Shown here: positions 1 through 9,274 of the stretch, piece after piece | Position numbering within the stretch: the first letter of the stretch is position 1 | Layout of the letters: every line of letters starts with the position of its first letter | Virus genome (UHGV): UHGV-0369329 | Length of the DNA stretch: 23,752 nucleotides | Reading direction: 5' to 3' (one strand) | Origin: a virus | Made by a program: the position numbers and the translations under genes | Notes under the pieces: model-generated | The model's input: only the letters and a program-made list of their open reading frames with translations | Database searches by the model: none | What the model was told of the DNA's origin: nothing

Positions 1-24
1 TAGCGGGTATACTCATGCCGCATT

Positions 25-99
25 GTCCTCTTAGTTAAATGGATATAACGAGCCCCTCCTAAGGGCTAATTGCAGGTTCGATTCCTGCAGGGGACACCA
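25..99 (+). tRNA. argW: tRNA-Arg, anticodon CCU, 75 nt with encoded CCA (argW-type)
   Basis: Cloverleaf readable directly: acceptor GTCCTCT/AGGGGAC, D-stem GTTA/TAAC, anticodon stem AGCCC/GGGCT with loop CTCCTAA (anticodon CCT), T-arm GCAGG-TTCGATT-CCTGC, discriminator A, CCA at 97-99. Sequence matches my recollection of E. coli argW. Confidence 0.9.
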
Positions 100-194
100 T
101 TTATCAGTTCGCTCCCATCCGTACTAGTCCGCAAAATCCCCTGCATATCAAGCCTTCCATAGATTCACAGTTCGTAATGGTTCGCGTCAGATCG

Positions 195-224
195 TTGACA
201 GCCGCACACCATGACGGGTAAAAA
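195..224 (+). promoter_or_regulatory. Candidate sigma70 promoter for int (TTGACA at 195-200, weak -10 TAAAAA at 219-224)
   Basis: Perfect -35 hexamer; the -10 is only a 4/6 match at 18 bp spacing. Position is appropriate, upstream of the int ATG at 261. Confidence 0.3.
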
Positions 225-260
225 GTGGATAAAATAATTTTACCCACCGGATTTTTACCC

Positions 261-1418
261 ATGCTCACCGTTAAGCAGATTGAAGCAGCAAAGCCGAAAG
301 AAAAACCATACCGCCTTCTCGATGGTAATGGCCTGTACCTTTATGTTCCTGTATCCGGGAAAAAGGTATGGCAGCTTCGCTACAAGATTGACGGTAAGGA
401 AAAAATACTGACCGTCGGAAAATATCCGCTTATGACTTTGCAGGAGGCAAGGGATAAAGCATGGACCGCGAGGAAAGACATCTCGGTTGGCATCGATCCG
501 GTAAAAGCGAAAAAGGCTTCGTCTAATAACAATTCCTTTAGCGCCATTTACAAGGAATGGTACGAGCACAAGAAGCAAGTATGGTCAGTAGGGTATGCGA
601 CTGAACTTGCCAAAATGTTTGATGACGACATTTTACCCATCATCGGCGGCCTTGAGATTCAGGATATTGAGCCGATGCAACTGCTGGAAGTAATCCGCAG
701 ATTTGAAGATCGCGGTGCAATGGAGCGAGCCAACAAAGCCCGCAGAAGATGCGGCGAGGTTTTCCGTTACGCTATTGTCACCGGAAGGGCTAAATATAAC
801 CCAGCACCTGACCTTGCTGACGCCATGAAAGGATACCGCAAGAAGAACTTCCCGTTTCTTCCAGCAGACCAGATCCCTGCATTCAACAAAGCACTGGCAA
901 CATTTTCAGGAAGCATCGTATCGCTCATTGCGACCAAAGTTTTACGCTACACAGCCCTAAGAACGAAAGAGCTTCGTTCCATGCAATGGAAGAACGTCGA
1001 TTTTGAAAACAGGATTATCACTATCGACGCCAGTGTGATGAAGGGCCGCAAGATTCATGTTGTTCCTATGTCAGACCAGGTGGTTGAACTTCTCACTACG
1101 CTAAGCTCCATCACTAAACCAGTATCAGAGTTTGTTTTTGCCGGGCGCAACGATAAGAAGAAGCCAATCTGCGAGAACGCGGTATTGCTTGTGATCAAAC
1201 AAATCGGCTATGAGGGTCTGGAAAGCGGTCACGGATTCAGGCATGAATTCAGCACGATTATGAACGAGCACGAATGGCCTGCCGACGCCATTGAAGTGCA
1301 ACTGGCACATGCCAACGGCGGTTCTGTGCGCGGGATTTACAACCATGCTCAGTATCTCGATAAGCGCAGAGAAATGATGCAGTGGTGGGCGGACTGGCTT
1401 GATGAGAAGGTGGAGTGA
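261..1418 (+). CDS. intS: Tyrosine recombinase/integrase, P4-family with N-terminal DUF4102-type arm domain; IntS-like, 385 aa
   Basis: ORF track 225..1418 begins at a GTG; the in-frame ATG at 261 (MLTVKQIEAAKPKEKPYRLLDGNGLYLYV) gives 385 aa, matching the IntS N-terminus as I recall it. Catalytic signature present (HGFRHEF, VRGIYNHAQY). Lies directly downstream of the tRNA, co-directional. Confidence 0.9.
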   Translation: MLTVKQIEAAKPKEKPYRLLDGNGLYLYVPVSGKKVWQLRYKIDGKEKILTVGKYPLMTLQEARDKAWTARKDISVGIDPVKAKKASSNNNSFSAIYKEWYEHKKQVWSVGYATELAKMFDDDILPIIGGLEIQDIEPMQLLEVIRRFEDRGAMERANKARRRCGEVFRYAIVTGRAKYNPAPDLADAMKGYRKKNFPFLPADQIPAFNKALATFSGSIVSLIATKVLRYTALRTKELRSMQWKNVDFENRIITIDASVMKGRKIHVVPMSDQVVELLTTLSSITKPVSEFVFAGRNDKKKPICENAVLLVIKQIGYEGLESGHGFRHEFSTIMNEHEWPADAIEVQLAHANGGSVRGIYNHAQYLDKRREMMQWWADWLDEKVE

Positions 1419-1442
1419 ACCACCTTAACCACTATCGAAGAG

Positions 1443-1476
1443 CACAAAGCATTGCAATCAAGTGCAAAGCTTTGTG
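1443..1476. terminator. Stem-loop between convergent int and tailspike genes (14-bp stem with one mismatch, 6-nt loop)
   Basis: CACAAAGCATTGCA-atcaag-TGCAAAGCTTTGTG. No clean U-run on either side, so the terminator role is inferred from position only. Confidence 0.4.
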
Positions 1477-1498
1477 TCTAACACTTATTTAAACAACA

Positions 1499-3496
1499 TT
1501 ATATTGCAGATATTATAAAACATAATAATTCTTCATATCTTATTCCATATCGCTCACCCCCTTCTATAGATATTCTGCGTTCTCCAGTATCATATTCAAT
1601 TAATTTTTCATCACCGGATTCTTCATCAAAAATTATCTTTTTAGCAATTACTGGTTCGTATTCAGTTTCCCATTTATCATAGCAAAAAAGACCATAGTCG
1701 TTTGCATCAAGCCCTTCTTCAGCAAATGCTTTATATACATCTTGGGCAATAATGCCAAAATGTAATCTAGCATTTTCTCCTTTTTCAATTACTGAATCTA
1801 TAAATCTAAAACAACAAACCAAACCCTTTATTTTATATGCAACACGTCTCTCTGCATCAGTAATCGGTCTTTTATCAGTCTTAACTCGACCATCCGATGT
1901 GTTAATCGTTGAAGTGCCAGCAAATATTGTATTCCACCTTCTGGATGCTGAACCGCAATTTCTAGCGTTATCTGTTGCTGGTTGTACCGACGCATCAAAA
2001 CGAGCATAATTATTCTCATCAGAAACAGGTCCCATCAATCCACTCAAAAAAGGGAGCCCGCTCTGATTAGCAATTATTAATTGGTTGTCACCTGAAGAAA
2101 TTGCCGAACCGGCATTGGTTCCGATAAATATATTACCTGTTCCAGAGCTTAACGATCTACCAGATCTATATCCAAGCATTACATTGTTACTTGCCGAACC
2201 AATAGAATTAAGTGAGTCGGCTCCTACTGCGACATTATTCATCCCTGTAGATGTGCCTGTATAAGGGTTATCTATAGAAGAAATCCCTCTTCCTGATCCG
2301 CTACCAATATATGTATTGTTATCTCCATTTGTAATCTCCCTTCCGGATGCATTGCCTATAAATGTGTTATTATTTAGAATGTTATAAGACAACCTTTTGC
2401 CTGATTGGTCTGTAACAATTCCAGCTCGCATTCCAGCCGCTCGACCTATTGCAACATTACCACTACCAGTATGAAGTTGTTGTAATGCACTTGATCCTAC
2501 TGCAACATTAAAATTTCCTTCTTTATTTTCATTTAGGGCATCGCGCCCAATTCCAATTATGTTACTAGCTGTGGTTGATTTTTTGCACGCATTCACACCA
2601 ATTGCTACAATCTCAGTGCCAGTGCATGGCGATGTATCTGTGAGATCGTCTTGAAGGGTATCACCTGATAATACACCTGTCCCAATTGCTGTAATGTTAT
2701 TGCCCGTGCTAATGTTTCTTCCTGCACTTGGTCCAATCGCAACAACTTGCCCGGATATATCATTTCCATTATATATCTTGCCAGCATCAAAACCAAAAAA
2801 AACATTTCCAATTGTCTGAGCAGGATTTGCAAATGGAATAGGTTCGTCTCCTTTACTTTGTATTATTTTACCAGGGCCATAAAATTTTCCATTAATATAG
2901 TTCTCAATTAAATAAGTACCTTGTGGAACATAAACACCGTCAGGTGAAACTGAAGATGCATAGGAAAATATATGTGTTGCGTCAATATTGCCATTAACAA
3001 TGTCGCTAACATCTTCATGTTTTACAAAATCAAGAATACTAATATTCTCTGCATTTTTATCATGCTGTGTTCGTTTTGTAGAATTAATTAAAGGTTGTTT
3101 TACTGTGATTAATGAATCACCAAGCCCATCATCTGAACTTAAAAGTTCTTGCCTTAACTGATCCGGGTCATACTTCAGCACATTAGGAAAATAAAACTGC
3201 TGCGCACCATATGCATCATAAACAGCCATAGAATGGCCTTGCACAGTTACGAACTTGGCAATCTGTCCGTTATATACCGGATATCCGGCAGCGTTAATGA
3301 TTATTGGTTGCGAAACAGGAATGTGAGAACCGTCTTCGTTCTCTACATAAACCTGAATCTGGTTTTCAGGATTTACCGGGTCAGTGTCAATTTTACCGAT
3401 ATAAATTTTGCCATTGGCTACGGCTTTAAAAGAACGCGCCATAGTGAAGAGTTGCGAAGGCATACTCACTACAACATTGGCTGTAATGTCTGTCAT
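1499..3496 (-). CDS. Tailspike/tail fibre: P22 gp9-like N-terminal head-binding domain, glycine-rich repeat fibre, C-terminal intramolecular chaperone (S74-type) domain
   Basis: N-terminus [43 protein letters not shown]...VLKYDPDQ matches the P22 tailspike head-binding domain. The middle has many G-x-x-A/N-rich repeats. The C-terminus has the TSDGRVK autoproteolysis-type motif followed by a chaperone-like domain. GGAG RBS lies 8 nt upstream of the ATG at 3496. Confidence 0.85.
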
Positions 3497-3628
3497 TTAA
3501 TTTGCTCCAGATACAAGGAATCGCCGCAGCATGGCTACGGTTGGCATTTGTTACATACCGAAACGGTACGATTGTTGATTTGTACAGTGGGTTTTACGAT
3601 GCCATTCCACCCATTTGGTGAGACATTG

Positions 3629-3886
3629 ATGATGTACAGCAAATACGATGAGGCGCAGTTCCACTTGAGGCTTACACACGAGTTGCACGCTAAGATTAAG
3701 CAGCGTGCAAAAATGAATAACAGGTCTATCAATTCCGAAATTGTGGCTACGATGGAAGAATCACTCTCCAAACCATCACCTGTAAGCGGGTATCGTGATG
3801 AAGAAGAGAGGCTGGCCTCATTAATCTCGGAACGAGTAAAAGAAGTTGCGGCTGAAATTCTAAGGAAAGAAAAAACCCGCGATTAA
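3629..3886 (+). CDS. Mnt-like ribbon-helix-helix repressor, 85 aa
   Basis: C-terminal part of track ORF 3233..3886. FHLRLTHELHAKIKQRAKMNNRSINSEIV...SKPSPVSGYRDEEERLASL aligns along its whole length with P22 Mnt as I recall it (FNFRMPMEVREKLKFRAEANGRSMNSELL...SKPSPVTGYRNDAERLADE). The 5' part of the track ORF is antisense to the tailspike gene. Confidence 0.75.
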   Translation: MMYSKYDEAQFHLRLTHELHAKIKQRAKMNNRSINSEIVATMEESLSKPSPVSGYRDEEERLASLISERVKEVAAEILRKEKTRD

Positions 3887-3900
3887 GCGGGTTTAGTTTT
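3873..3900. terminator. Bidirectional intrinsic terminator between convergent Mnt-like gene and antirepressor-type gene
   Basis: AAACCCGC-gattaa-GCGGGTTT, followed by AGTTTT on plus and by TTTCTTT on minus. The TAA stop of the Mnt-like gene (3884-3886) sits in the loop. Confidence 0.65.
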
Positions 3901-3912
3901 CATTATAAAATG

Positions 3913-4641
3913 TTACGCCACATTTGAGCCATGTAGCAGGTGTTGTAGTGCTTTAACGCCTTCAGAATTGTAACGGAACGCCTCTACCTGTTTGCTGGAA
4001 TGCGCCGATTTATCTAGGAAGAACTTCCCGTACTGCTCAGTTTTGAGGTTGTTTGCGTTAGCAATGCGACCAATCTTGTTGGCCGTTACTCCAAGCTGCT
4101 CTGCAACCTCCCCTGCTGAGTAGTAATGCTCTTCTATTGCCGGAAGAGGTATTGCATTAAAACCAACGAGCGGGTTGATTATACTTGCTGCCGCTGTCTG
4201 CTTTGCCTCAGGCGCAAGATTTGGCATCAGATCGAACAGATTGGTAACAGCTTCAACCGTCATTTTCAATGTTCTCGCTTGACGATACTCAACAAGTCCA
4301 CTCGCTGATTTACCGCTTTTAATGTGCGCTTCTTGCATACTTTCAAGTTGGTCTACCAGTGAGCGGCGAACGGCTTTTGACTCGCGAGCGGCAACTCGCA
4401 ATGCTTGCTTGATTGACATCTCAATGATAACCATCGAAGTTTTGTTCGCTTTTTGCACTACACTTTTTGTGTAGTGCTCTCCATCCAATTCATCTTCAAT
4501 TTTCTCGATGAATTTGTTATTACGAACCTCCGGCTCACCGCACTGTCTACGAGCCTGATTTACCATCTCAAGCAGGCGCTGGCTGTCAATGGTTTTATCC
4601 GTGACAACGGATCCGATGTTTGCTACATTCTTAAAAGTCAT
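3913..4641 (-). CDS. Antirepressor-type protein with C-terminal KilAC/ANT-like segment, 242 aa
   Basis: Start moved to the ATG at 4641 (MTFKNVANIG...), which has an AAGGAA RBS 6 nt upstream; the track ORF starts 17 codons earlier without an RBS. C-terminal YSAGEVAEQLGVTANKIGRIANANNLKTEQYGKFF resembles the KilAC/ANT domain of phage antirepressors. Family assignment is from memory. Confidence 0.55.
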   Translation of the reverse strand: MTFKNVANIGSVVTDKTIDSQRLLEMVNQARRQCGEPEVRNNKFIEKIEDELDGEHYTKSVVQKANKTSMVIIEMSIKQALRVAARESKAVRRSLVDQLESMQEAHIKSGKSASGLVEYRQARTLKMTVEAVTNLFDLMPNLAPEAKQTAAASIINPLVGFNAIPLPAIEEHYYSAGEVAEQLGVTANKIGRIANANNLKTEQYGKFFLDKSAHSSKQVEAFRYNSEGVKALQHLLHGSNVA

Positions 4642-4710
4642 TAGGCATTCCTTATGTGGTAGTAAGGGTGTGACATAGGCCGCCAGCAGCACACTGGCGG
4701 TTTTCTTTTT
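4636..4710 (+). ncRNA. Candidate sar-like antisense RNA, about 75 nt, opposite the RBS and start of the 3913..4641 gene
   Basis: Extended -10 TGcTACATT at 4621-4629 (possible -35 GTGACA at 4601-4606, 17-bp spacer). Intrinsic terminator CCGCCAG-cagcaca-CTGGCGG at 4680-4700 followed by TTTTCTTTTT at 4701-4710. The transcript would be complementary to the AAGGAA RBS (4648-4653) and ATG (4639-4641) of the minus-strand gene. No credible plus-strand CDS here. Confidence 0.45.
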
Positions 4711-4729
4711 GCGCCGTCCGGCGCACCAA

Positions 4730-5356
4730 TCAATGAATCCATTCCTCGCCGCGCAGTTTTGCCAGCATTGGCTGAGCGTTCTTTACGACAAAATTGTTGG
4801 TATCAAGATTCTTCATTTCACGAAGAAGTGATTTCTTGGTTTCTTCTGACATATAGCGAGTCTCATATGCGATATCGTAAATCCTTCCTGAAAGCTCAGA
4901 ACAAATTTGCTTCATTCCTGGGTAGATGTGTTTGCACATTTGTTGACTCTTCTCCATCCACAATTGTAAGTAGCAGAGATTAACCAGTTCTTCGTCAGTA
5001 AACTGTTTTGCAATCGGTGAGCATTCTGCCTGCCGATCCAAAATATCCAGCACCCAGCGGCGGAACTCTTTGGCTACCGGAGTGCGAGCAAACATCGCGA
5101 TTAGGTGGGCACCGCGTAGTGAGAAAACTCGCACTTTTTTGCGATAATTTCCTGAGGTACTCACTTCGAGTACCTGAGTCATTCCGGCGCTAAACTCATC
5201 GCTATACTTGTTATAAATCATTGTTACTGCACGACTATTTGCGTATTTAAGTGCAGATGCAATATTAGATGATGTAAACCAAACACCATGCATATCACGG
5301 GTGGGCACCAACTCAACTCCGTGGAAGTTGTAATCTGATTTTGCTACAATATTCAT
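4730..5356 (-). CDS. Antirepressor (Ant-like) with Bro-N/AntA-type N-terminal domain, 208 aa
   Basis: Start moved to the ATG at 5356 (MNIVAKSDYNFHGVELVP...) with an AAGGAA RBS. HGVWFTSSNIASALKYANSRAVTMI...VRVFSLRGAHLIAMFARTPVAKEFRRWVLDIL fits the Bro-N/antirepressor N-terminal pattern. Sits downstream of the Arc-like gene as in P22 arc-ant. Confidence 0.6.
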   Translation of the reverse strand: MNIVAKSDYNFHGVELVPTRDMHGVWFTSSNIASALKYANSRAVTMIYNKYSDEFSAGMTQVLEVSTSGNYRKKVRVFSLRGAHLIAMFARTPVAKEFRRWVLDILDRQAECSPIAKQFTDEELVNLCYLQLWMEKSQQMCKHIYPGMKQICSELSGRIYDIAYETRYMSEETKKSLLREMKNLDTNNFVVKNAQPMLAKLRGEEWIH

Positions 5357-5431
5357 GTTAGTTTCCTTGCATACGGTTACTGACATAGAAGCCCGACTCG
5401 TGTTCGCGCACTGTCGGGCTTCGCTATTTTT
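5357..5431 (+). ncRNA. Candidate sar-like antisense RNA, about 75 nt, opposite the ant RBS, terminating at the 3' end of the arc-like gene
   Basis: Extended -10 TGcTACAAT at 5342-5350. Terminator hairpin GAAGCCCGAC...GTCGGGCTTC (5388-5422) followed by TATTTTT (5425-5431). The transcript would cover the complement of the ant RBS (5364-5369). Same architecture as P22 sar (promoter near the ant start, terminator at the arc end). Confidence 0.5.
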
Positions 5432-5597
5432 ATGTCCTAGCATTCTTCTCTCCAATCAGTCCGTACACTTTTCTCAATTGATAAATAAGTTCCGTGTTGA
5501 ACTGTCGACACTCTTTTTCTCCATTTCTTTCAATCGCCTTCCTTACATCCTCTGGGAAACGAACCTTGCGTTGATACATGTCTTTTGCTTTTTCCAT
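5430..5597 (-). CDS. Arc-like small ribbon-helix-helix protein, 55 aa; below the length cutoff of the ORF track
   Basis: Hand-translated codon by codon: MEKAKDMYQRKVRFPEDVRKAIERNGEKECRQFNTELIYQLRKVYGLIGEKNART. Strong RBS AAGGAG 5 nt before the ATG at 5597. A beta-strand-like QRKVRFPEDV followed by helix is RHH-like, though the NG...E motif is less canonical than in Arc. Position is upstream of ant and divergent from the Mnt-like gene, as for P22 arc. Confidence 0.5.
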   Translation of the reverse strand: MEKAKDMYQRKVRFPEDVRKAIERNGEKECRQFNTELIYQLRKVYGLIGEKNART

Positions 5598-5720
5598 CTC
5601 CACTCCTTAAATAGCCCCACTGTGGGGCAATCGAAATTGTCACACCGTGCGTCATTGAAGTCAACCCCACCGTGGGGCATAATTTACTTATTGTGAATTT
5701 TTCCTGTTTGGACTAATGGT
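5598..5720. promoter_or_regulatory. Divergent promoter/operator region (Pant-like leftward, Pmnt-like rightward) with twin palindromic operators
   Basis: Palindrome 1 GCCCCACtGTGGGGC at 5614-5628; palindrome 2 CCCCACcGTGGGG at 5665-5677. Plus-strand promoter TTGAAG (5655-5660), 17-bp spacer, CATAAT (5678-5683), with palindrome 2 in the spacer. Minus-strand promoter TTGACT (complement of 5659-5664), 17-bp spacer, GACAAT (complement of 5636-5641), with palindrome 1 over the predicted start/leader. The two -35 hexamers overlap. Confidence 0.6.
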
Positions 5721-6095
5721 ATGAGTAGAGAAGACCCTCAACTTCGGATTAGGCTTCCTGTTGAATTAAAAAAAATAATTGAAGCGTCATCAAAACAAAA
5801 TAATCGTTCTATGAATGCTGAGATTGTCACTCTGCTTGAGTTGGCGATTCGTGTTTGTCGTGATTTTGGGCCGGAGGATGGTCCTATCGTTCAGCAGTTT
5901 AAAGAACAACTAGATGCGATAAACAGAAAATATGATAAAATCGAGCATGAAAAACTTATACCTCAACTTTTAGAAATCATAGAAAAACAGAAAAAACAAG
6001 TAGATAAACTTATTAGCATGGTTGAAAGATCAATTCCTCTTTCAGAGGAATATAAGCAGAAATATCTTGGTGATGACAACAAAAAACCCACCTGA
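5721..6095 (+). CDS. Mnt-like RHH repressor with extended coiled-coil-like C-terminus, 124 aa; positional equivalent of P22 mnt
   Basis: N-terminus MSREDPQLRIRLPVELKKIIEASSKQNNRSMNAEIV matches the Mnt N-terminus (MARDDPHFNFRMPMEVREKLKFRAEANGRSMNSELL as I recall). Divergent from the arc-like gene with the operator region between. Confidence 0.7.
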   Translation: MSREDPQLRIRLPVELKKIIEASSKQNNRSMNAEIVTLLELAIRVCRDFGPEDGPIVQQFKEQLDAINRKYDKIEHEKLIPQLLEIIEKQKKQVDKLISMVERSIPLSEEYKQKYLGDDNKKPT

Positions 6096-6105
6096 CGGTG
6101 GGTTT
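6084..6105. terminator. Bidirectional intrinsic terminator between convergent Mnt-like gene and the 322-aa gene
   Basis: AAACCCACC-tgac-GGTGGGTTT; on the minus strand followed by TTTTTTGTT. The TGA stop of the Mnt-like gene (6093-6095) lies in the loop. Confidence 0.6.
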
Positions 6106-6110
6106 CATAA

Positions 6111-7079
6111 TTAGATTTCTGGTTTCATTCTTCCGAAAACCTTTTCTATTCCTTTTTCGTATTCTTCTCTTGTCTCACTCATCGCTGCGACACCAAGAAG
6201 CTTACCGATATGCTGACGCAAAGCCTTGACACCAATTTCAGAAAGGAACAGATGCAACTTATCAGATTGTTTTCCGTTCTCGTCTCGGCTGGCTCTAATT
6301 TGTTCAAGGATTTTACCTTTACTCTTTGCTAGCGGGGTGTATATCTGCATGTTGGTTAGCTGCCCAAAACGAATAGGCCGTCCTTTCTCTGGCCTATTCA
6401 GGCCGTACAGTCGATACCACTCCTCGTATAGCTCATCTGGAAATTCCTTTTCATATTGACGAGCCTCTTCACGAACAAACGCTTTGAACTCGTCAATGAC
6501 AGCCTGAACTTCTGGACGATAACCAGCAAGCGCATACGCAACCCCCTTAATTCCCGCCTTAGCGGAGGCATTAATAAGTCTCTGTGCTGCGGCGGCTGCC
6601 TTTAACCGTGATTGTGGTAGATCGTCATTATCTTTGGCTTCTATTAGTGCCCTACCAATATCAACAATTGCTGTAATGTCATAACCTAACGCTTGATGAA
6701 CGGTTTTAGACTTCGAAGTAAGTTGAAATTTATAGGGATTTTCCATTTTTCGCTGCAATTCTAGATCTCGGTATTTGCTCATATACTGAGCGCCAAGCAG
6801 TTGATCTAAATCCCTGGCATGTTCACCAATCCCTAGCAACTGAGATAATCCAGTTTTCGTAACAACGACAGTTTTCGACTCGTCATCCAGTACATAACAT
6901 TCAGCATCAATGCCAAAATCATCTAAAAAGTTACCACGATGAGTTGCCCTGAGAATCTTACTTTTCCATCTTGCAGCAGCTGCTTTCTTTGCTATTTCAG
7001 AACGCTGCTCTTTAGTCAGCGACTTTGCGCGAGCGATCCCGCCCTTAGCTTTCCCTTCGCCACTTTTCTTTTCAGTCAT
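6111..7079 (-). CDS. Hypothetical 322-aa protein in the sieA/accessory slot; basic N-terminus with HTH-like SEIAKKAAAARW motif
   Basis: Start moved to the ATG at 7079 (MTEKKSGEGKAKGGIARAKSLTKEQRSEIAKKAAAARW...). Hydrophilic with no obvious TM segment. Not recognisable as any P22 structural protein. A possible P63C-type assignment is only a vague recollection. Confidence 0.55.
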   Translation of the reverse strand: MTEKKSGEGKAKGGIARAKSLTKEQRSEIAKKAAAARWKSKILRATHRGNFLDDFGIDAECYVLDDESKTVVVTKTGLSQLLGIGEHARDLDQLLGAQYMSKYRDLELQRKMENPYKFQLTSKSKTVHQALGYDITAIVDIGRALIEAKDNDDLPQSRLKAAAAAQRLINASAKAGIKGVAYALAGYRPEVQAVIDEFKAFVREEARQYEKEFPDELYEEWYRLYGLNRPEKGRPIRFGQLTNMQIYTPLAKSKGKILEQIRASRDENGKQSDKLHLFLSEIGVKALRQHIGKLLGVAAMSETREEYEKGIEKVFGRMKPEI

Positions 7080-7170
7080 AATGCAAGCACCTTTGTTGTG
7101 ATGTATGCTTGCATTATATACACTGTACACACATACAAGCAAGCATAAAGCTAAAACAAAATGCTTGCAT
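7080..7170. repeat. Four copies of a TGCTTGCATTA / ATGCWWGCAT motif in alternating orientation in a divergent intergenic region
   Basis: ATGCAAGCAC at 7081-7090 (reverse), ATGCTTGCAT at 7105-7114, AAGCAAGCAT at 7137-7146 (reverse, partial), ATGCTTGCAT at 7161-7170. Copies at 7105 and 7161 share ATGCTTGCATTA; the copy at 7081 abuts the start codon of the 322-aa gene. Confidence 0.6.
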
Positions 7171-7235
7171 TACAACCGCGCTACTCCAACTACACATTAT
7201 CATCTGGTATCCTGCGCAAAACTAAGGAGGTTGGT

Positions 7236-7424
7236 GTGAAGAAAAAATTTGTAAACGTTGCAAAGTGCGCAATTTTTATATTTTTTATGACCTTTTACGG
7301 ATTTAGTGCCGGAGAAGGTTTCGATCGTGATGCCAATGCATTCAGTTTCTTTTGTCTGTCTATAGTGGTCATAATTGTATGGGTGGAATTAAAGCAAACA
7401 TTGTTTCATGTGCTAGGGAAATAA
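7236..7424 (+). CDS. Small hydrophobic protein, 62 aa, two predicted TM helices; opposite strand to the late operon
   Basis: GTG start at 7236 preceded by a perfect AAGGAGG RBS (7223-7229) at 6-nt spacing. Product VKKKFVNVAKCAIFIFFMTFYGFSAGEGFDRDANAFSFFCLSIVVIIVWVELKQTLFHVLGK has two hydrophobic stretches. The track ORF starts at ATG 7161, which has no RBS. AT-rich, about 36% GC. Confidence 0.6.
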   Translation: MKKKFVNVAKCAIFIFFMTFYGFSAGEGFDRDANAFSFFCLSIVVIIVWVELKQTLFHVLGK

Positions 7425-7441
7425 CCATCCATGGCATTTAG

Positions 7442-9274
7442 TCACTGCTGTGTTGCCTCAGTGGCAAGCAGCGGTCTGATGGCATTCGCAGCGTTATTCA
7501 GCGCTCTTTCATAGGCTGGCGTTCCTGCTTTGGTGTTTGCCAGACGTAAGAGCGCATTCCTGGCCATAGGGCTTTCATAAACCCTCGACATAAGGCCAAT
7601 CCCTGTTTCCCCAGCCAATAGCGCGCCTCCGGTTTTTAGGTTACCAATAACCCTTACCAAAGGCGCGAGTGTCATGCCAGTCTTCGTCACAACATTAGCC
7701 TCAGATGCTCTTTTGGTAGCATCGAGAATAGATAACATCCCCTCTATCTCTTTTCCGTTCTTCCCACCAAATACAGTTTTAAACACCTGACCATTTGCTT
7801 GTTTTTGCAGCTTGCCAAGCTCGGTCATCATTTTCTGAGGGCTGTCACCTACCTTGTCAGCTATTTTGCTGATATATGCCGCCCTTAGCATGTCTTTACC
7901 TTTTTGATCGAGTTTCCCGTACAATCGAGCTATATCTGACCCATATTGTCCATACACAATGGTATTTACAGCCTCGGGAGTTAAATCTCCTTTGTTTAGA
8001 ACGTTTTTAAGGCGCGTTTGAGTTGCATGTGTTGCCATTTTTGCATAATCAGCTTTTCCCGCTCTCCATGCTGAAGCATCTTTTGGGCTAAGTCCTTTCG
8101 CTATAGATTTACTAAGGCTATTGGTTAGCGAGTTATAGACCCTGTCGACCATTGTTTGCGACATTGATGGCAGAACTGTACGATCGCCTTTTACGTCAAT
8201 GCGGAACTGAGTTCTCAGCTTATCAAGTAACTCAAAGGCATCATCTCCATTTGTTATCTCCTGAATGGCATTCTTATAATCATTAAGCGCAGAAATGGTC
8301 TGGGTGTCAGAAACACCTTTAAGTTTCCCAAGTTCGTTTACTGCTCCGTCGATAGCTCTTATGGCGCCACTTGTATCAACTGGCTTTCCAACCATTCTTC
8401 CTGACAGGCTGTTTAGTTTTGACTTGGCTAACGATTTTTCCCTTGCAACGCCTGACTTTAGACTATCAACGACTACAGATGGATCGTAGTCGCCGTATTT
8501 TTCGGTGAAGCGATTAACAAGCTTGGTTCTGGCATCCTGCTGTGCGGCTCTCATTGGTCCAGTACCAGCTATGACTCCTTCTGAGTAACCCTGCAGTTGA
8601 TTGCCAAGTTTTGTTTTTGGAGGAACTACATCCGATGTCATAACTGGTACATCTGCCGCAGCGGCACGCTTGAGCAATTGCTGATCTGCTGGTGATATTT
8701 CGCCACGAACAGCAGTAATTCCACGCCCTATTCCCTTTGCTGCTGCGGAAAGAACCCCCTGAGCGGCAAGGTTAACTCCGGCATTTTTAGCTGCATTTTG
8801 TGCGAAATCGCCTTCCTGATTTGCGGCCTCTGCCAGTGATCCAATAGCCATGCTTCCTGCCGTTCCAACTCCTGGAACTAAATACCCGCCAATTGTTTCT
8901 CCAGCTTGCGCATAAGGGTCTGTTGGTCGATCTACTGGACGATAGACATCGTCCAAAACCTTGGGGCCACCAAGCCCCTGGCTGATTGCATTAATCAGAC
9001 TTGCGCCACCCTGCAATACGTCAAATGGTATGTTTACCAGACCACGACCAGCCTGCTCTGCAATTTGCCCTGCACTTTGACCACCAGTGAGCCAATCGCC
9101 AGCTTGTTGCATCAATGATGGTTCTTCCCGTGTTGGTGCATTATTGTCCTGATTAACTGTTTGTTGCTGAACAGCCTGACCAGCAAAATACTCATCAATG
9201 GCGGTGCCAATATCTTCCGTGCTCGTACCATCAGGGAAGGTAAATGTCTTACCGTTTGCAGTTACTTTCATCAT
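7442..9274 (-). CDS. Ejection (injection) protein, P22 gp16 homologue, 610 aa
   Basis: Size and position (last gene of the virion module, after the gp20 homologue) match P22 gene 16 (609 aa). Assignment is by synteny and length rather than recalled sequence. Confidence 0.8.

Follow-up and report, generated by a model that had tools for sequence, protein, structure and literature searches.

Why does a P22-like prophage carry two genes for Mnt-type repressors, and what is the purpose of the one that lies against the tailspike gene? The question is raised by a 23,752-nucleotide stretch of viral DNA (UHGV virus genome UHGV-0369329), which was analysed as a whole and is called "the window" here. 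In it, an open reading frame at position 3,629, named mntA in this article, had been flagged in a preliminary description as an "extra" mnt gene. The explanation that we think probable, with a fair measure of reserve, is that MntA is a working allele of the P22 mnt family in a tailspike-adjacent slot, with its own operator and terminator, and that the antirepressor (ant) cassette beyond it is a separate matter.

Setting and gene order

The window represents the left arm of a prophage that is P22-like (Lederbergvirus-type) and is inserted beside tRNA-Arg(CCU), and an Rfam scan of its whole length returned nothing except that tRNA. The features discussed here are collected in Table 1. Both mnt genes are on the plus strand and lie between the homologues of gene 16, beyond which the virion genes follow, and of the tailspike gene, both on the minus strand. 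This is the position of the immI region or "ant moron," and the content agrees with it: an Ant-type gene, an Arc-like gene, and Mnt2 are found at a divergent promoter-like pair (5614-5683). The Arc-like gene is the first of a leftward ant operon, and related contigs call a 55-aa gene there. On the other side, mntA and the tailspike gene diverge from a spacer of 132 bp.

Table 1. Positions in the window of the genes and control elements under discussion
Feature	Position	Strand	Remarks
Integrase gene	225-1418	+	
Tailspike gene	1499-3496	-	N-terminal P22 head-binding domain, C-terminal S74 chaperone domain
Conserved tailspike leader ("boundary sequence")	3497-3545	-	Homology to P22, CUS-3, and VR50 extends up to ...GGCTACGGT
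Putative MntA operator, O_A	3556-3568		Perfect 13-bp palindrome TACCGAAACGGTA; on P22 O_mnt in alignment
Putative mntA promoter	3572-3600	+	-35 TTGTTG (3572-3577), 17-nt spacer, -10 TACGAT (3595-3600)
mntA (ORF under study)	3629-3886	+	85-aa Mnt-type ribbon-helix-helix repressor gene
Two-way intrinsic terminator, mntA and convergent ant operon	3873-3894		-16 and -13.9 kcal/mol; z -4.4 and -4.8
Antirepressor-family gene, 242 aa	3913-4641	-	phrog_1726 "anti-repressor," E=7e-101; convergent with mntA
Ant-type antirepressor gene	4730-5443	-	Bro-N and P22_AR_C domains
Arc-like small ribbon-helix-helix gene	5430-5597	-	Weak Pfam Arc match, E=0.0012
Ant cassette control region	5614-5677		Palindromes CCCCAC(T/C)GTGGGG at 5614-5626 and 5665-5677 (CCCCACNGTGGGG, two copies)
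mnt2	5721-6095	+	124-aa Arc-family ribbon-helix-helix protein ending ...KKPT; P22-positional mnt slot
Two-way terminator, mnt2 and convergent P63C-domain gene	6083-6106		
P63C-domain gene	6111-7142	-	Convergent with mnt2
Gene 16 homologue	7442-9274	-	Virion genes next

A full-length Mnt protein

The view that the gene at 3629 encodes a full-length, 85-aa homologue of Mnt, convergent with the ant genes, is well founded. MntA matches the Pfam Arc family (PF03869; E=3e-15, residues 8-53), and so carries an N-terminal ribbon-helix-helix DNA-binding domain. With phmmer it aligns to P22 Mnt (PDB 1mnt) over residues 7-78 (72 residues, E=9e-16), an alignment that includes the linker SKPSPVxGYR and the greater part of the C-terminal region. 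Over the full length, identity with P22 Mnt is ~41-45%, and the recognition strand of MntA reads Q-F-H-L-R-L.

An AlphaFold model based on 15 homologues (mean pLDDT 81) predicts an extended N-terminal strand followed by helices at residues 17-29, 34-47, and 58-83, with a linker between the second of these and the long C-terminal helix, which is confident. A Foldseek search with this model gave Arc, AmrZ, and CopG as the best structural matches (probability up to 0.99) and returned nothing besides ribbon-helix-helix proteins; the E-values of 0.1 or worse are weak because the domain is small.

MntA is probably a tetramer, to judge from sequence and model. The Mnt tetramerisation domain PF11423 matches P22 Mnt and the natural chimera P0016 and has no match in MntA, so that tetramer formation is read from the alignment and the predicted helix only. 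Among natural alleles, the N- and C-terminal halves of MntA are freely recombined with P22-type and Gally-type halves, and the chimeras that join the MntA C-terminus to P22- or Gally-type N-termini argue for functional equivalence of the C-termini.

As for the gene model, a second ATG at 3632 offers an alternative start that would give 84 aa. A long open reading frame at 3233-3886 (217 aa) and a 95-aa form starting at 3599 were rejected, because the additional codons run through the -10 element, in a reading frame that Gally, P22, and Serratia do not conserve. Please note that databases often label genes of this type "partition protein ATPase," which is wrong, or assign them the incorrect 95-aa start.

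One operator, matched to the recognition strand

The spacer between mntA and the tailspike gene (3497-3628) aligns with the mnt-arc control region of P22. The palindrome O_A ends 3 bp before the -35 element of the predicted mntA promoter and lies ~60 bp upstream of the start codon of the tailspike gene, so the predicted operator lies just upstream of the gene's own promoter. The position of that promoter is homologous to P22 P_mnt; in an alignment of seven sequences the -35 TTG and -10 TAnnAT of P_mnt are invariant, and the ribosome-binding site and start codon also align. By a rough weight matrix, the P_mnt homologue is the best rightward promoter in each of eight mnt-tailspike spacers, at 8-10.6 bits. 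These promoter calls are consensus-based and weak, and P_mntA matches 8 of 12 consensus positions, under the threshold of the scan.

Operators of this family go with the protein. In all alleles compared (~15), a palindrome lies 73-80 nt before the ATG, abuts the -35 element, and co-varies with the recognition strand of the Mnt in question. Three classes can be recognised: HFNFRM with the palindrome AGGTCCACCGTGGACCT in P22; QFNLRL with AGACCAC(T/G)GTGGTCT (AGACCACNGTGGTCT) in Gally, ST64T, and SE1; and QFHLRL with TACC(G/T/A)AAA(C/T)GGTA in the window, JEP4, VSe13, Sf101, IME10, Serratia, and Klebsiella. Alleles that share the N-terminal half and have another C-terminal half (the Sf101 type and P0016) retain the same operator. 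In a Citrobacter prophage, a nonsense codon in the mnt gene is accompanied by a mutated operator arm (GGTA to AGTA).

The location of the palindrome on O_mnt and its co-variation with the recognition strand are good comparative evidence that 3556-3568, as a sequence, is very probably the MntA operator. The preliminary description had already singled out this inverted repeat as a candidate operator; its alignment with O_mnt and its co-variation with the protein support that choice, while its placing near 3560-3572 has to be corrected to the coordinates given here.

The operator appears to stand alone. TACC-N5-GGTA occurs once in the window, and O_A is also single in the whole JEP4 genome. No second MntA operator with up to three mismatches was found in the window, nor was one found in any of the loci fetched or in the whole JEP4 genome. 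Gally and ST64T likewise have one Gally-type operator each, with no second site found.

We also scanned IMG/VR with a 16-mer around the operator, which gave 68 matches, about half of them in unrelated phages. In one family of these the 16-mer motif occurs twice, 515 bp apart; we set the unrelated matches aside as chance or convergent and uninformative on MntA. All of the 30-odd true matches have a tailspike gene on the other side. A scan of species-representative genomes contributed three loci only.

The tailspike side and the absence of P_ant

What lies to the left of the operator is also informative. The tailspike leader (...GGCTACGG), a stretch annotated as bsq1 in CUS-3, is preceded in P22, CUS-3, and VR50 by the ant terminator and ant. 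In the window it directly follows the operator. Since homology with P22 is found on both sides, mntA sits at a P22-type mnt control region without arc, ant, and the ant terminator.

The promoter that would drive arc and ant is missing as well, there being no P_ant that overlaps O_A. Neither a consensus scan nor a rough weight-matrix scan found a leftward promoter of P_ant quality before the tailspike gene, and leftward scores in the mntA-tailspike spacer reach at most 3.95 bits against 15.5 for P22 P_ant. None of the eight mnt-tailspike spacers has a leftward promoter site at the position equivalent to P_ant; their best leftward scores are at most 5.7 bits in seven and 8.2 bits in the eighth, from Proteus phage Brookers.

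With P_ant and arc-ant absent and a single operator present, MntA would locally affect only its own promoter and leftward-moving polymerase that enters the tailspike gene. Given one operator and no P_ant-type promoter facing the tailspike, the regulatory target of MntA is something that we infer.

The ant cassette and Mnt2

The ant genes are probably controlled elsewhere. In the ant control region, two promoter-like sites lie back to back, one leftward (5664..5636, TTGACT-17-GACAAT) and one rightward (5655..5683, TTGAAG-17-CATAAT). Of the two palindromes listed in Table 1, one lies over the site where the ant transcript is predicted to begin, and the other falls within the spacer of the mnt2 promoter. 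Mnt2 resembles 1mnt in residues 3-43 only and has a longer, different C-terminus.

The preliminary description had proposed that MntA takes part in a layered control of ant expression. We find no support for this: the ant promoter has a different, repeated palindrome, and no MntA-type operator with up to three mismatches is present in 3900-6100.

The company that these genes keep in other genomes is equally telling. Mnt2 is listed, with identical sequence, for 643 blocks of the contig collection; in one instance, a myovirus-like prophage, it is accompanied by its Arc-like gene and a P22-type Ant, and MntA is absent. In ten contigs that encode an identical MntA, the two adjoining ant genes hardly differ, apart from a P22-type Ant in one place, and what varies is the Arc-like gene, the operators, and the regulator on the outside. 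That regulator, the 124-aa Mnt2 in the window, may be an Arc-family protein of 85, 106, or 127 aa, an uncalled one of 83 aa, or an HTH-S24 repressor. The 242-aa antirepressor-family gene stands beside MntA at nearly all loci where MntA is at least 97% identical, VSe13 (95%) being an exception. A Serratia prophage has the same five-gene order adjoining a tail-fibre gene with an unrelated N-terminus.

The different operators, the occurrence of Mnt2, arc, and ant elsewhere without MntA, and the variable positional regulator all point to an ant cassette that is independent of MntA. We would therefore regard the cassette (two antirepressors, the Arc-like gene, and Mnt2) as a separate mobile addition with different operators. 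It follows that "extra" is not the best word for the gene at 3629, which is the closer orthologue of P22 Mnt and occupies a recurring slot next to the tailspike; it is the ant cassette, with Mnt2, that has been added.

Two-way terminators with a stop codon in the loop

That both Mnt-like genes end inside the loop of a two-way terminator, as first proposed from the sequence, is borne out by hairpin energies and stop positions. The two hairpins have energies of -14 to -16 kcal/mol and z-scores of -3.7 to -4.8 against shuffled sequences, on both strands. The mntA stop codon (TAA, 3884-3886) lies in a 6-nt loop (3881-3886) and that of mnt2 (TGA, 6093-6095) in a 4-nt loop (6093-6096).

Each GC-rich hairpin has a T-run on either strand: TTTTTTCTTT and TTTTTTGTTG on the minus strand, and the weaker TTTAGTTTTC and TTTCATAATT on the plus strand. 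Each hairpin terminates a convergent gene as well, which makes both of them shared two-way terminators. With the better T-runs on the minus strand, 3873-3894 would function chiefly as the terminator of the ant operon, and a ribosome sitting on the stop codon would presumably make termination less efficient for transcripts in the mnt direction.

The mnt hairpins share with ordinary two-way terminators between convergent genes the A-run, GC-rich hairpin, and T-run that serve both transcripts; they differ in having a coding 5' arm and a stop codon in the loop, and these traits are conserved across mnt alleles. A stop-in-loop terminator is found in most of the mnt alleles examined; it is weak in P22, and in one Klebsiella allele the stop codon is at the base of the stem.

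Two classes travel with the C-terminal allele. Proteins ending in ...KKPT have CCCACC-(TGAC/TGAA/TAAT)-GGTGGG (Gally, VR50, K. oxytoca, the chimera P0016, and Mnt2 of the window, with a weakened version in P22), and those ending in ...KTRD have CCCGCG-ATTAA-GCGGG (MntA of the window, VSe13, and Pluralibacter). The Serratia mnt gene, with GCCCGG-ATTAA-CCGGGC, has another stem sequence and yet retains the hairpin. The mnt2 terminator is near-identical to that of Gally mnt, and it and the DNA beyond it are identical to the end of an ordinary mnt gene in the VR50 prophage of E. coli.

Duplicated cassette or independent units?

Do the twin terminators mean that a gene-plus-terminator unit was duplicated or acquired as a cassette, as was suggested at first? 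In its full form this explanation holds that the Mnt genes and their terminators are a duplicated or repeated cassette, and that both repressors act on the antirepressor promoter in layers. There are reasons to consider it. Both proteins are ribbon-helix-helix repressors, and their stop-in-loop terminators do share a core, AAAAAACCCRC, which occurs at these two sites alone in the window (0.04 occurrences would be expected by chance). Moreover, MntA at 97% identity or more accompanies two ant genes in most of the places examined.

The two copies are, however, not alignable along their length. Overall identity between MntA and Mnt2 is 26%, the BLASTP alignment is limited to 37 residues within the DNA-binding domain, and the C-terminal domains are unrelated. 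Identity confined in this way to the DNA-binding domain means that the pair is not a recent duplication.

The 3' ends can be aligned over only ~20 nt, namely the A-run, the GC stem, and the T-run, and this block is common to the mnt alleles of Gally, VR50, VSe13, Serratia, and Klebsiella (it is weak in P22). As the terminator is a trait of most of the mnt alleles examined, a pair of them is no evidence for duplication in this genome; the two in the window even belong to different allele classes (KTRD and KKPT). Nor is there an MntA operator near the ant promoter, and Mnt2, arc, and ant form a unit elsewhere without MntA.

We thus consider the duplicated, layered cassette very unlikely, and its duplication part is refuted for the most part by these comparisons. 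The window is better read as holding two independent Mnt/operator units of different specificity. A hetero-oligomer of MntA and Mnt2 was also considered and thought unlikely, because their C-terminal domains are unrelated.

Conservation and selection

Is the gene still in use? The preliminary description allowed for the possibility that it is a degraded pseudogene in relatives, which turns out to be true of two copies among ~50 loci, namely a frameshift in E. coli PK5 and the nonsense codon in the Citrobacter prophage. Otherwise, MntA is under strong purifying selection. Against the allele of Salmonella phage VSe13, dS is ~1.0 and dN 0.03, a dN/dS of ~0.03. In the contig collection, 919 blocks list this 85-aa protein with no residue changed, and mntA DNA is present in ~100 of 5,426 complete E. 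coli genomes. Six genera have retained palindrome, promoter, and terminator, and stem changes in VSe13, Serratia, and Pluralibacter preserve the hairpin.

These data bear on another explanation, in which MntA is a relic of an immI region that has lost arc-ant and has no present function. The paper on phage L raised this possibility for its mnt-like gene (PMC8022706), the P_ant homologue is indeed gone, and the two broken copies, one of them with an operator mutation, would fit. A dN/dS of this size at saturating dS, control elements kept in six genera, and a protein found unchanged in so many contig blocks do not, and we judge a functionless relic to be highly improbable. On its sequence record, we take the feature at 3629 to be real and functional.

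What might MntA do?

The explanation that we prefer, a working mnt allele with its own operator, can be spelled out as follows. In the lysogen, MntA, probably as a tetramer, would be made from its own weak promoter and would bind one operator. Its local targets would be that promoter, with a geometry as in P22 (the operator centre is ~45 bp upstream of the predicted start), and leftward transcription into the tailspike gene, whether read-through from ant or from the late operon. The two-way terminator at the end of mntA would stop the ant operon, and for the ant cassette, control would come from the cassette's Arc-like protein and from Mnt2, acting at different operators.

Of these steps, a gate on tailspike transcription is a conjecture. 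It has a precedent in an earlier proposal that Mnt/Arc and their region influence the amount of late transcription that reaches the tailspike (PMC2629481). Expression data exist for the tailspike-adjacent mnt gene of Gally, which belongs to another class: stationary cells in LB show only background levels of it, and in macrophages it is induced ~40-fold along with its neighbours and the tailspike gene; its deletion left bacterial survival unchanged in the one assay tried (PMC9928086). The Gally data show that such mnt genes are transcribed under some conditions.

Several points count against the preferred explanation. Besides the weak promoter calls and the missing PF11423 match, the sole operator abuts the gene's own promoter, which leaves no obvious selected target; diversified operator specificities are more typical of immunity functions between phages; and deletion of the similar gene in Gally, with its background level in LB, gave no phenotype.

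It is the diversified specificities that give weight to the main competing explanation, that MntA acts in trans. It would silence the ant promoter of superinfecting or co-resident P22-like phages with the same operator type and so protect the resident C2 repressor from foreign Ant, with the local operator serving self-regulation only. P22 Mnt is a maintenance repressor that keeps ant off, including that of superinfecting genomes (PMC2629481, PMC11016777); selection keeps solo mnt genes in phages that lack ant; and the N-terminal specificity classes and their operators diversify and recombine like immunity alleles. All O_A-type loci with an identifiable flank, however, face a tailspike or other receptor-binding gene and never arc-ant, and no phage with an O_A-type operator at its ant promoter was seen in the loci examined, a sample biased toward relatives of MntA. 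Action in trans would also leave the perfection of the local palindrome unexplained. We consider it unlikely, and retain the working allele with a local operator as the preferred account.

There is a further idea that we put forward tentatively and with more doubt than conviction: that mnt, a single operator, and a stop-in-loop terminator form a selected device that is independent of the phage's own antirepressor, either a valve on tailspike transcription or a guard against rival phages. A valve or a guard would explain purifying selection in many ant-less P22-like phages, over six genera, with diversifying DNA specificity. Solo mnt genes in P22-like phages have previously been described as possible remnants; here all parts are maintained. 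With gene, operator, and terminator all kept by selection, such a unit must do something, contrary to the remnant view.

To a large extent, the outcome of this analysis is annotation housekeeping, in that an "extra" gene becomes a family-typical mnt allele. The selected role of a solo, one-operator Mnt beside a tailspike gene is a genuine but minor question. The three matched classes of recognition strand and operator at one position provide a small natural series for the study of DNA recognition by the beta-sheet of ribbon-helix-helix proteins, and such matched sets help to predict which prophages share immI-type immunity.

Comparison with known systems

The layout in which mnt stands directly back-to-back with the tailspike gene recurs in ST64T, SE1, Gally, 720R6, VSe13, Proteus phage Brookers, Sf101, and IME10, and in prophages of Klebsiella aerogenes, K. 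oxytoca, and Pluralibacter. The spacer is ~110-150 bp overall and ~130-135 bp in MntA-type loci (E. coli, Klebsiella, and Pluralibacter). Several phages with a tailspike-adjacent mnt have no ant gene, and in many P22-like phages this slot holds the sole mnt gene.

The closest model for the protein and its control is P22 Mnt and immI. The predicted protein architecture is the same, the promoter/operator DNA is homologous, and the distance from operator to gene is equal; P22 mnt, too, is antisense to late transcription and lies between the homologues of gene 16 and gene 9. The differences are in specificity (QFHLRL with TACCGAAACGGTA in MntA, HFNFRM with AGGTCCACCGTGGACCT in P22 Mnt), in the C-terminal helix, which is divergent and has no PF11423 match, and in what lies beyond the operator, where P_ant and arc-ant are absent and the tailspike leader follows directly.

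Mnt-only "ant morons" were named by Villafane et al. in 2008 for ST64T, ST104, and their relatives (PMC2629481), and of the mnt-like gene in the same region of phage L it was written that it has "another function ... or" is "a remnant" (PMC8022706). In these phages (ST64T, ST104, phage L, SE1, and Gally of E. coli LF82), mnt diverges from the tailspike gene at the same leader junction and has a single operator, as in the window; a terminator overlapping the stop codon is shared too, as checked in Gally. They differ from the window in belonging to the QFNLRL class, with AGACCACNGTGGTCT, and in having no antirepressor cassette beyond mnt.

The gene order of the window, with tailspike, MntA, ant genes, an Arc-like gene, and a regulator on the opposite strand, is that of HS-1, a prophage of E. 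coli HS whose layout is drawn in Figure 3 of PMC2629481, and of phage JEP4. The gene for MntA is annotated in JEP4 as "regulatory protein mnt." In both, the outer regulator is an HTH (C2-like) repressor, whereas in the window it is the Arc-family Mnt2, and one of the ant genes of HS-1 is split by an IS3 element. CUS-3, unlike the window, is annotated with a tandem pair of mnt genes that lies beyond ant. With HS-1, JEP4, and CUS-3, two Mnt-like regulators in one ant moron are already on record. The layout around the gene at 3629 is thus ordinary and has already been drawn in the literature, and the gene itself is a widely distributed allele of a familiar repressor, in a region known to be variable.

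Integration site and a rare tailspike

The prophage has argW as its site (table). Few complete E. coli genomes have a tailspike with the receptor-binding part found here: only one covers positions 1-3500 of the window to at least 80%. Further along, a small ORF with hydrophobic stretches may be a small membrane-protein moron.

Features of the window and their positions
Feature	Position	Strand	Remarks
tRNA-Arg(CCU)	25-99		
IntS-type integrase	225-1418		Follows the tRNA
Two near-identical palindromes, CCCCAC(T/C)GTGGGG	5614-5626, 5665-5677		Lie around back-to-back promoter-like sites in the Arc-like gene/Mnt2 interval
87-aa ORF, hydrophobic stretches	7161-7424	+	Between P63C-domain gene and gene 16 homologue

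Annotating mntA and its relatives

For mntA, the gene for the 85-aa Mnt-type protein, a 95-aa product that begins at the ATG at 3599 is given in many database entries, among them WP_042041822.1 and the annotation of the P22-like phage Sf101. This is probably the wrong start, because that ATG falls within the predicted -10 element of the mntA promoter and none of Gally, P22, and Serratia conserves the reading frame it opens (3599-3628). The label “partition protein ATPase” is also a widespread misnomer for the MntA family.

Two copies of mntA have decayed. The one in a Citrobacter sp. (L013, 5001-5015) has a nonsense mutation at codon 5, and one arm of its operator is mutated as well; the one in E. 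coli PK5 (L011, 3186-3439) has a frameshift. Among the relatives of MntA, the proteins P0016, P0033, P0067, and P0078 are natural chimeras, in which N-terminal (DNA-binding) halves of the P22, Gally, or MntA type are combined with either C-terminal class. The halves meet at the conserved linker SKPSPVxGYRD, which implies that recombination within mnt is frequent.

The 16-mer around the putative MntA operator, CATACCGAAACGGTAC, also occurs in an unrelated phage family in IMG/VR, as two copies 515 bp apart (L027, 7579-7594 and 8094-8109); L028, L032, L035, and others show the same pairing. Each copy lies within a repeated promoter-like block directly upstream of a small gene, and may there serve as the operator for a different repressor.

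Comparison with other prophages

A myovirus-like prophage with Baseplate_J and sheath-initiator genes (L104, 3718-5375) contains the exact Mnt2 protein, its Arc-like partner of 55 aa, and an Ant of the P22 type, so the ant cassette moves between phage types. Within the window's own cassette, the two palindromes share their core, CCAC-N-GTGG, with the Mnt operators of P22 and Gally. A Serratia marcescens contig (L014, 1-3431) keeps the window's five-gene order (MntA-like, two antirepressors, Arc-like, and Mnt-like); its block adjoins a tail-fibre gene whose N-terminus is unrelated to the P22 head-binding domain, with a separate terminator between operator and tail-fibre gene.
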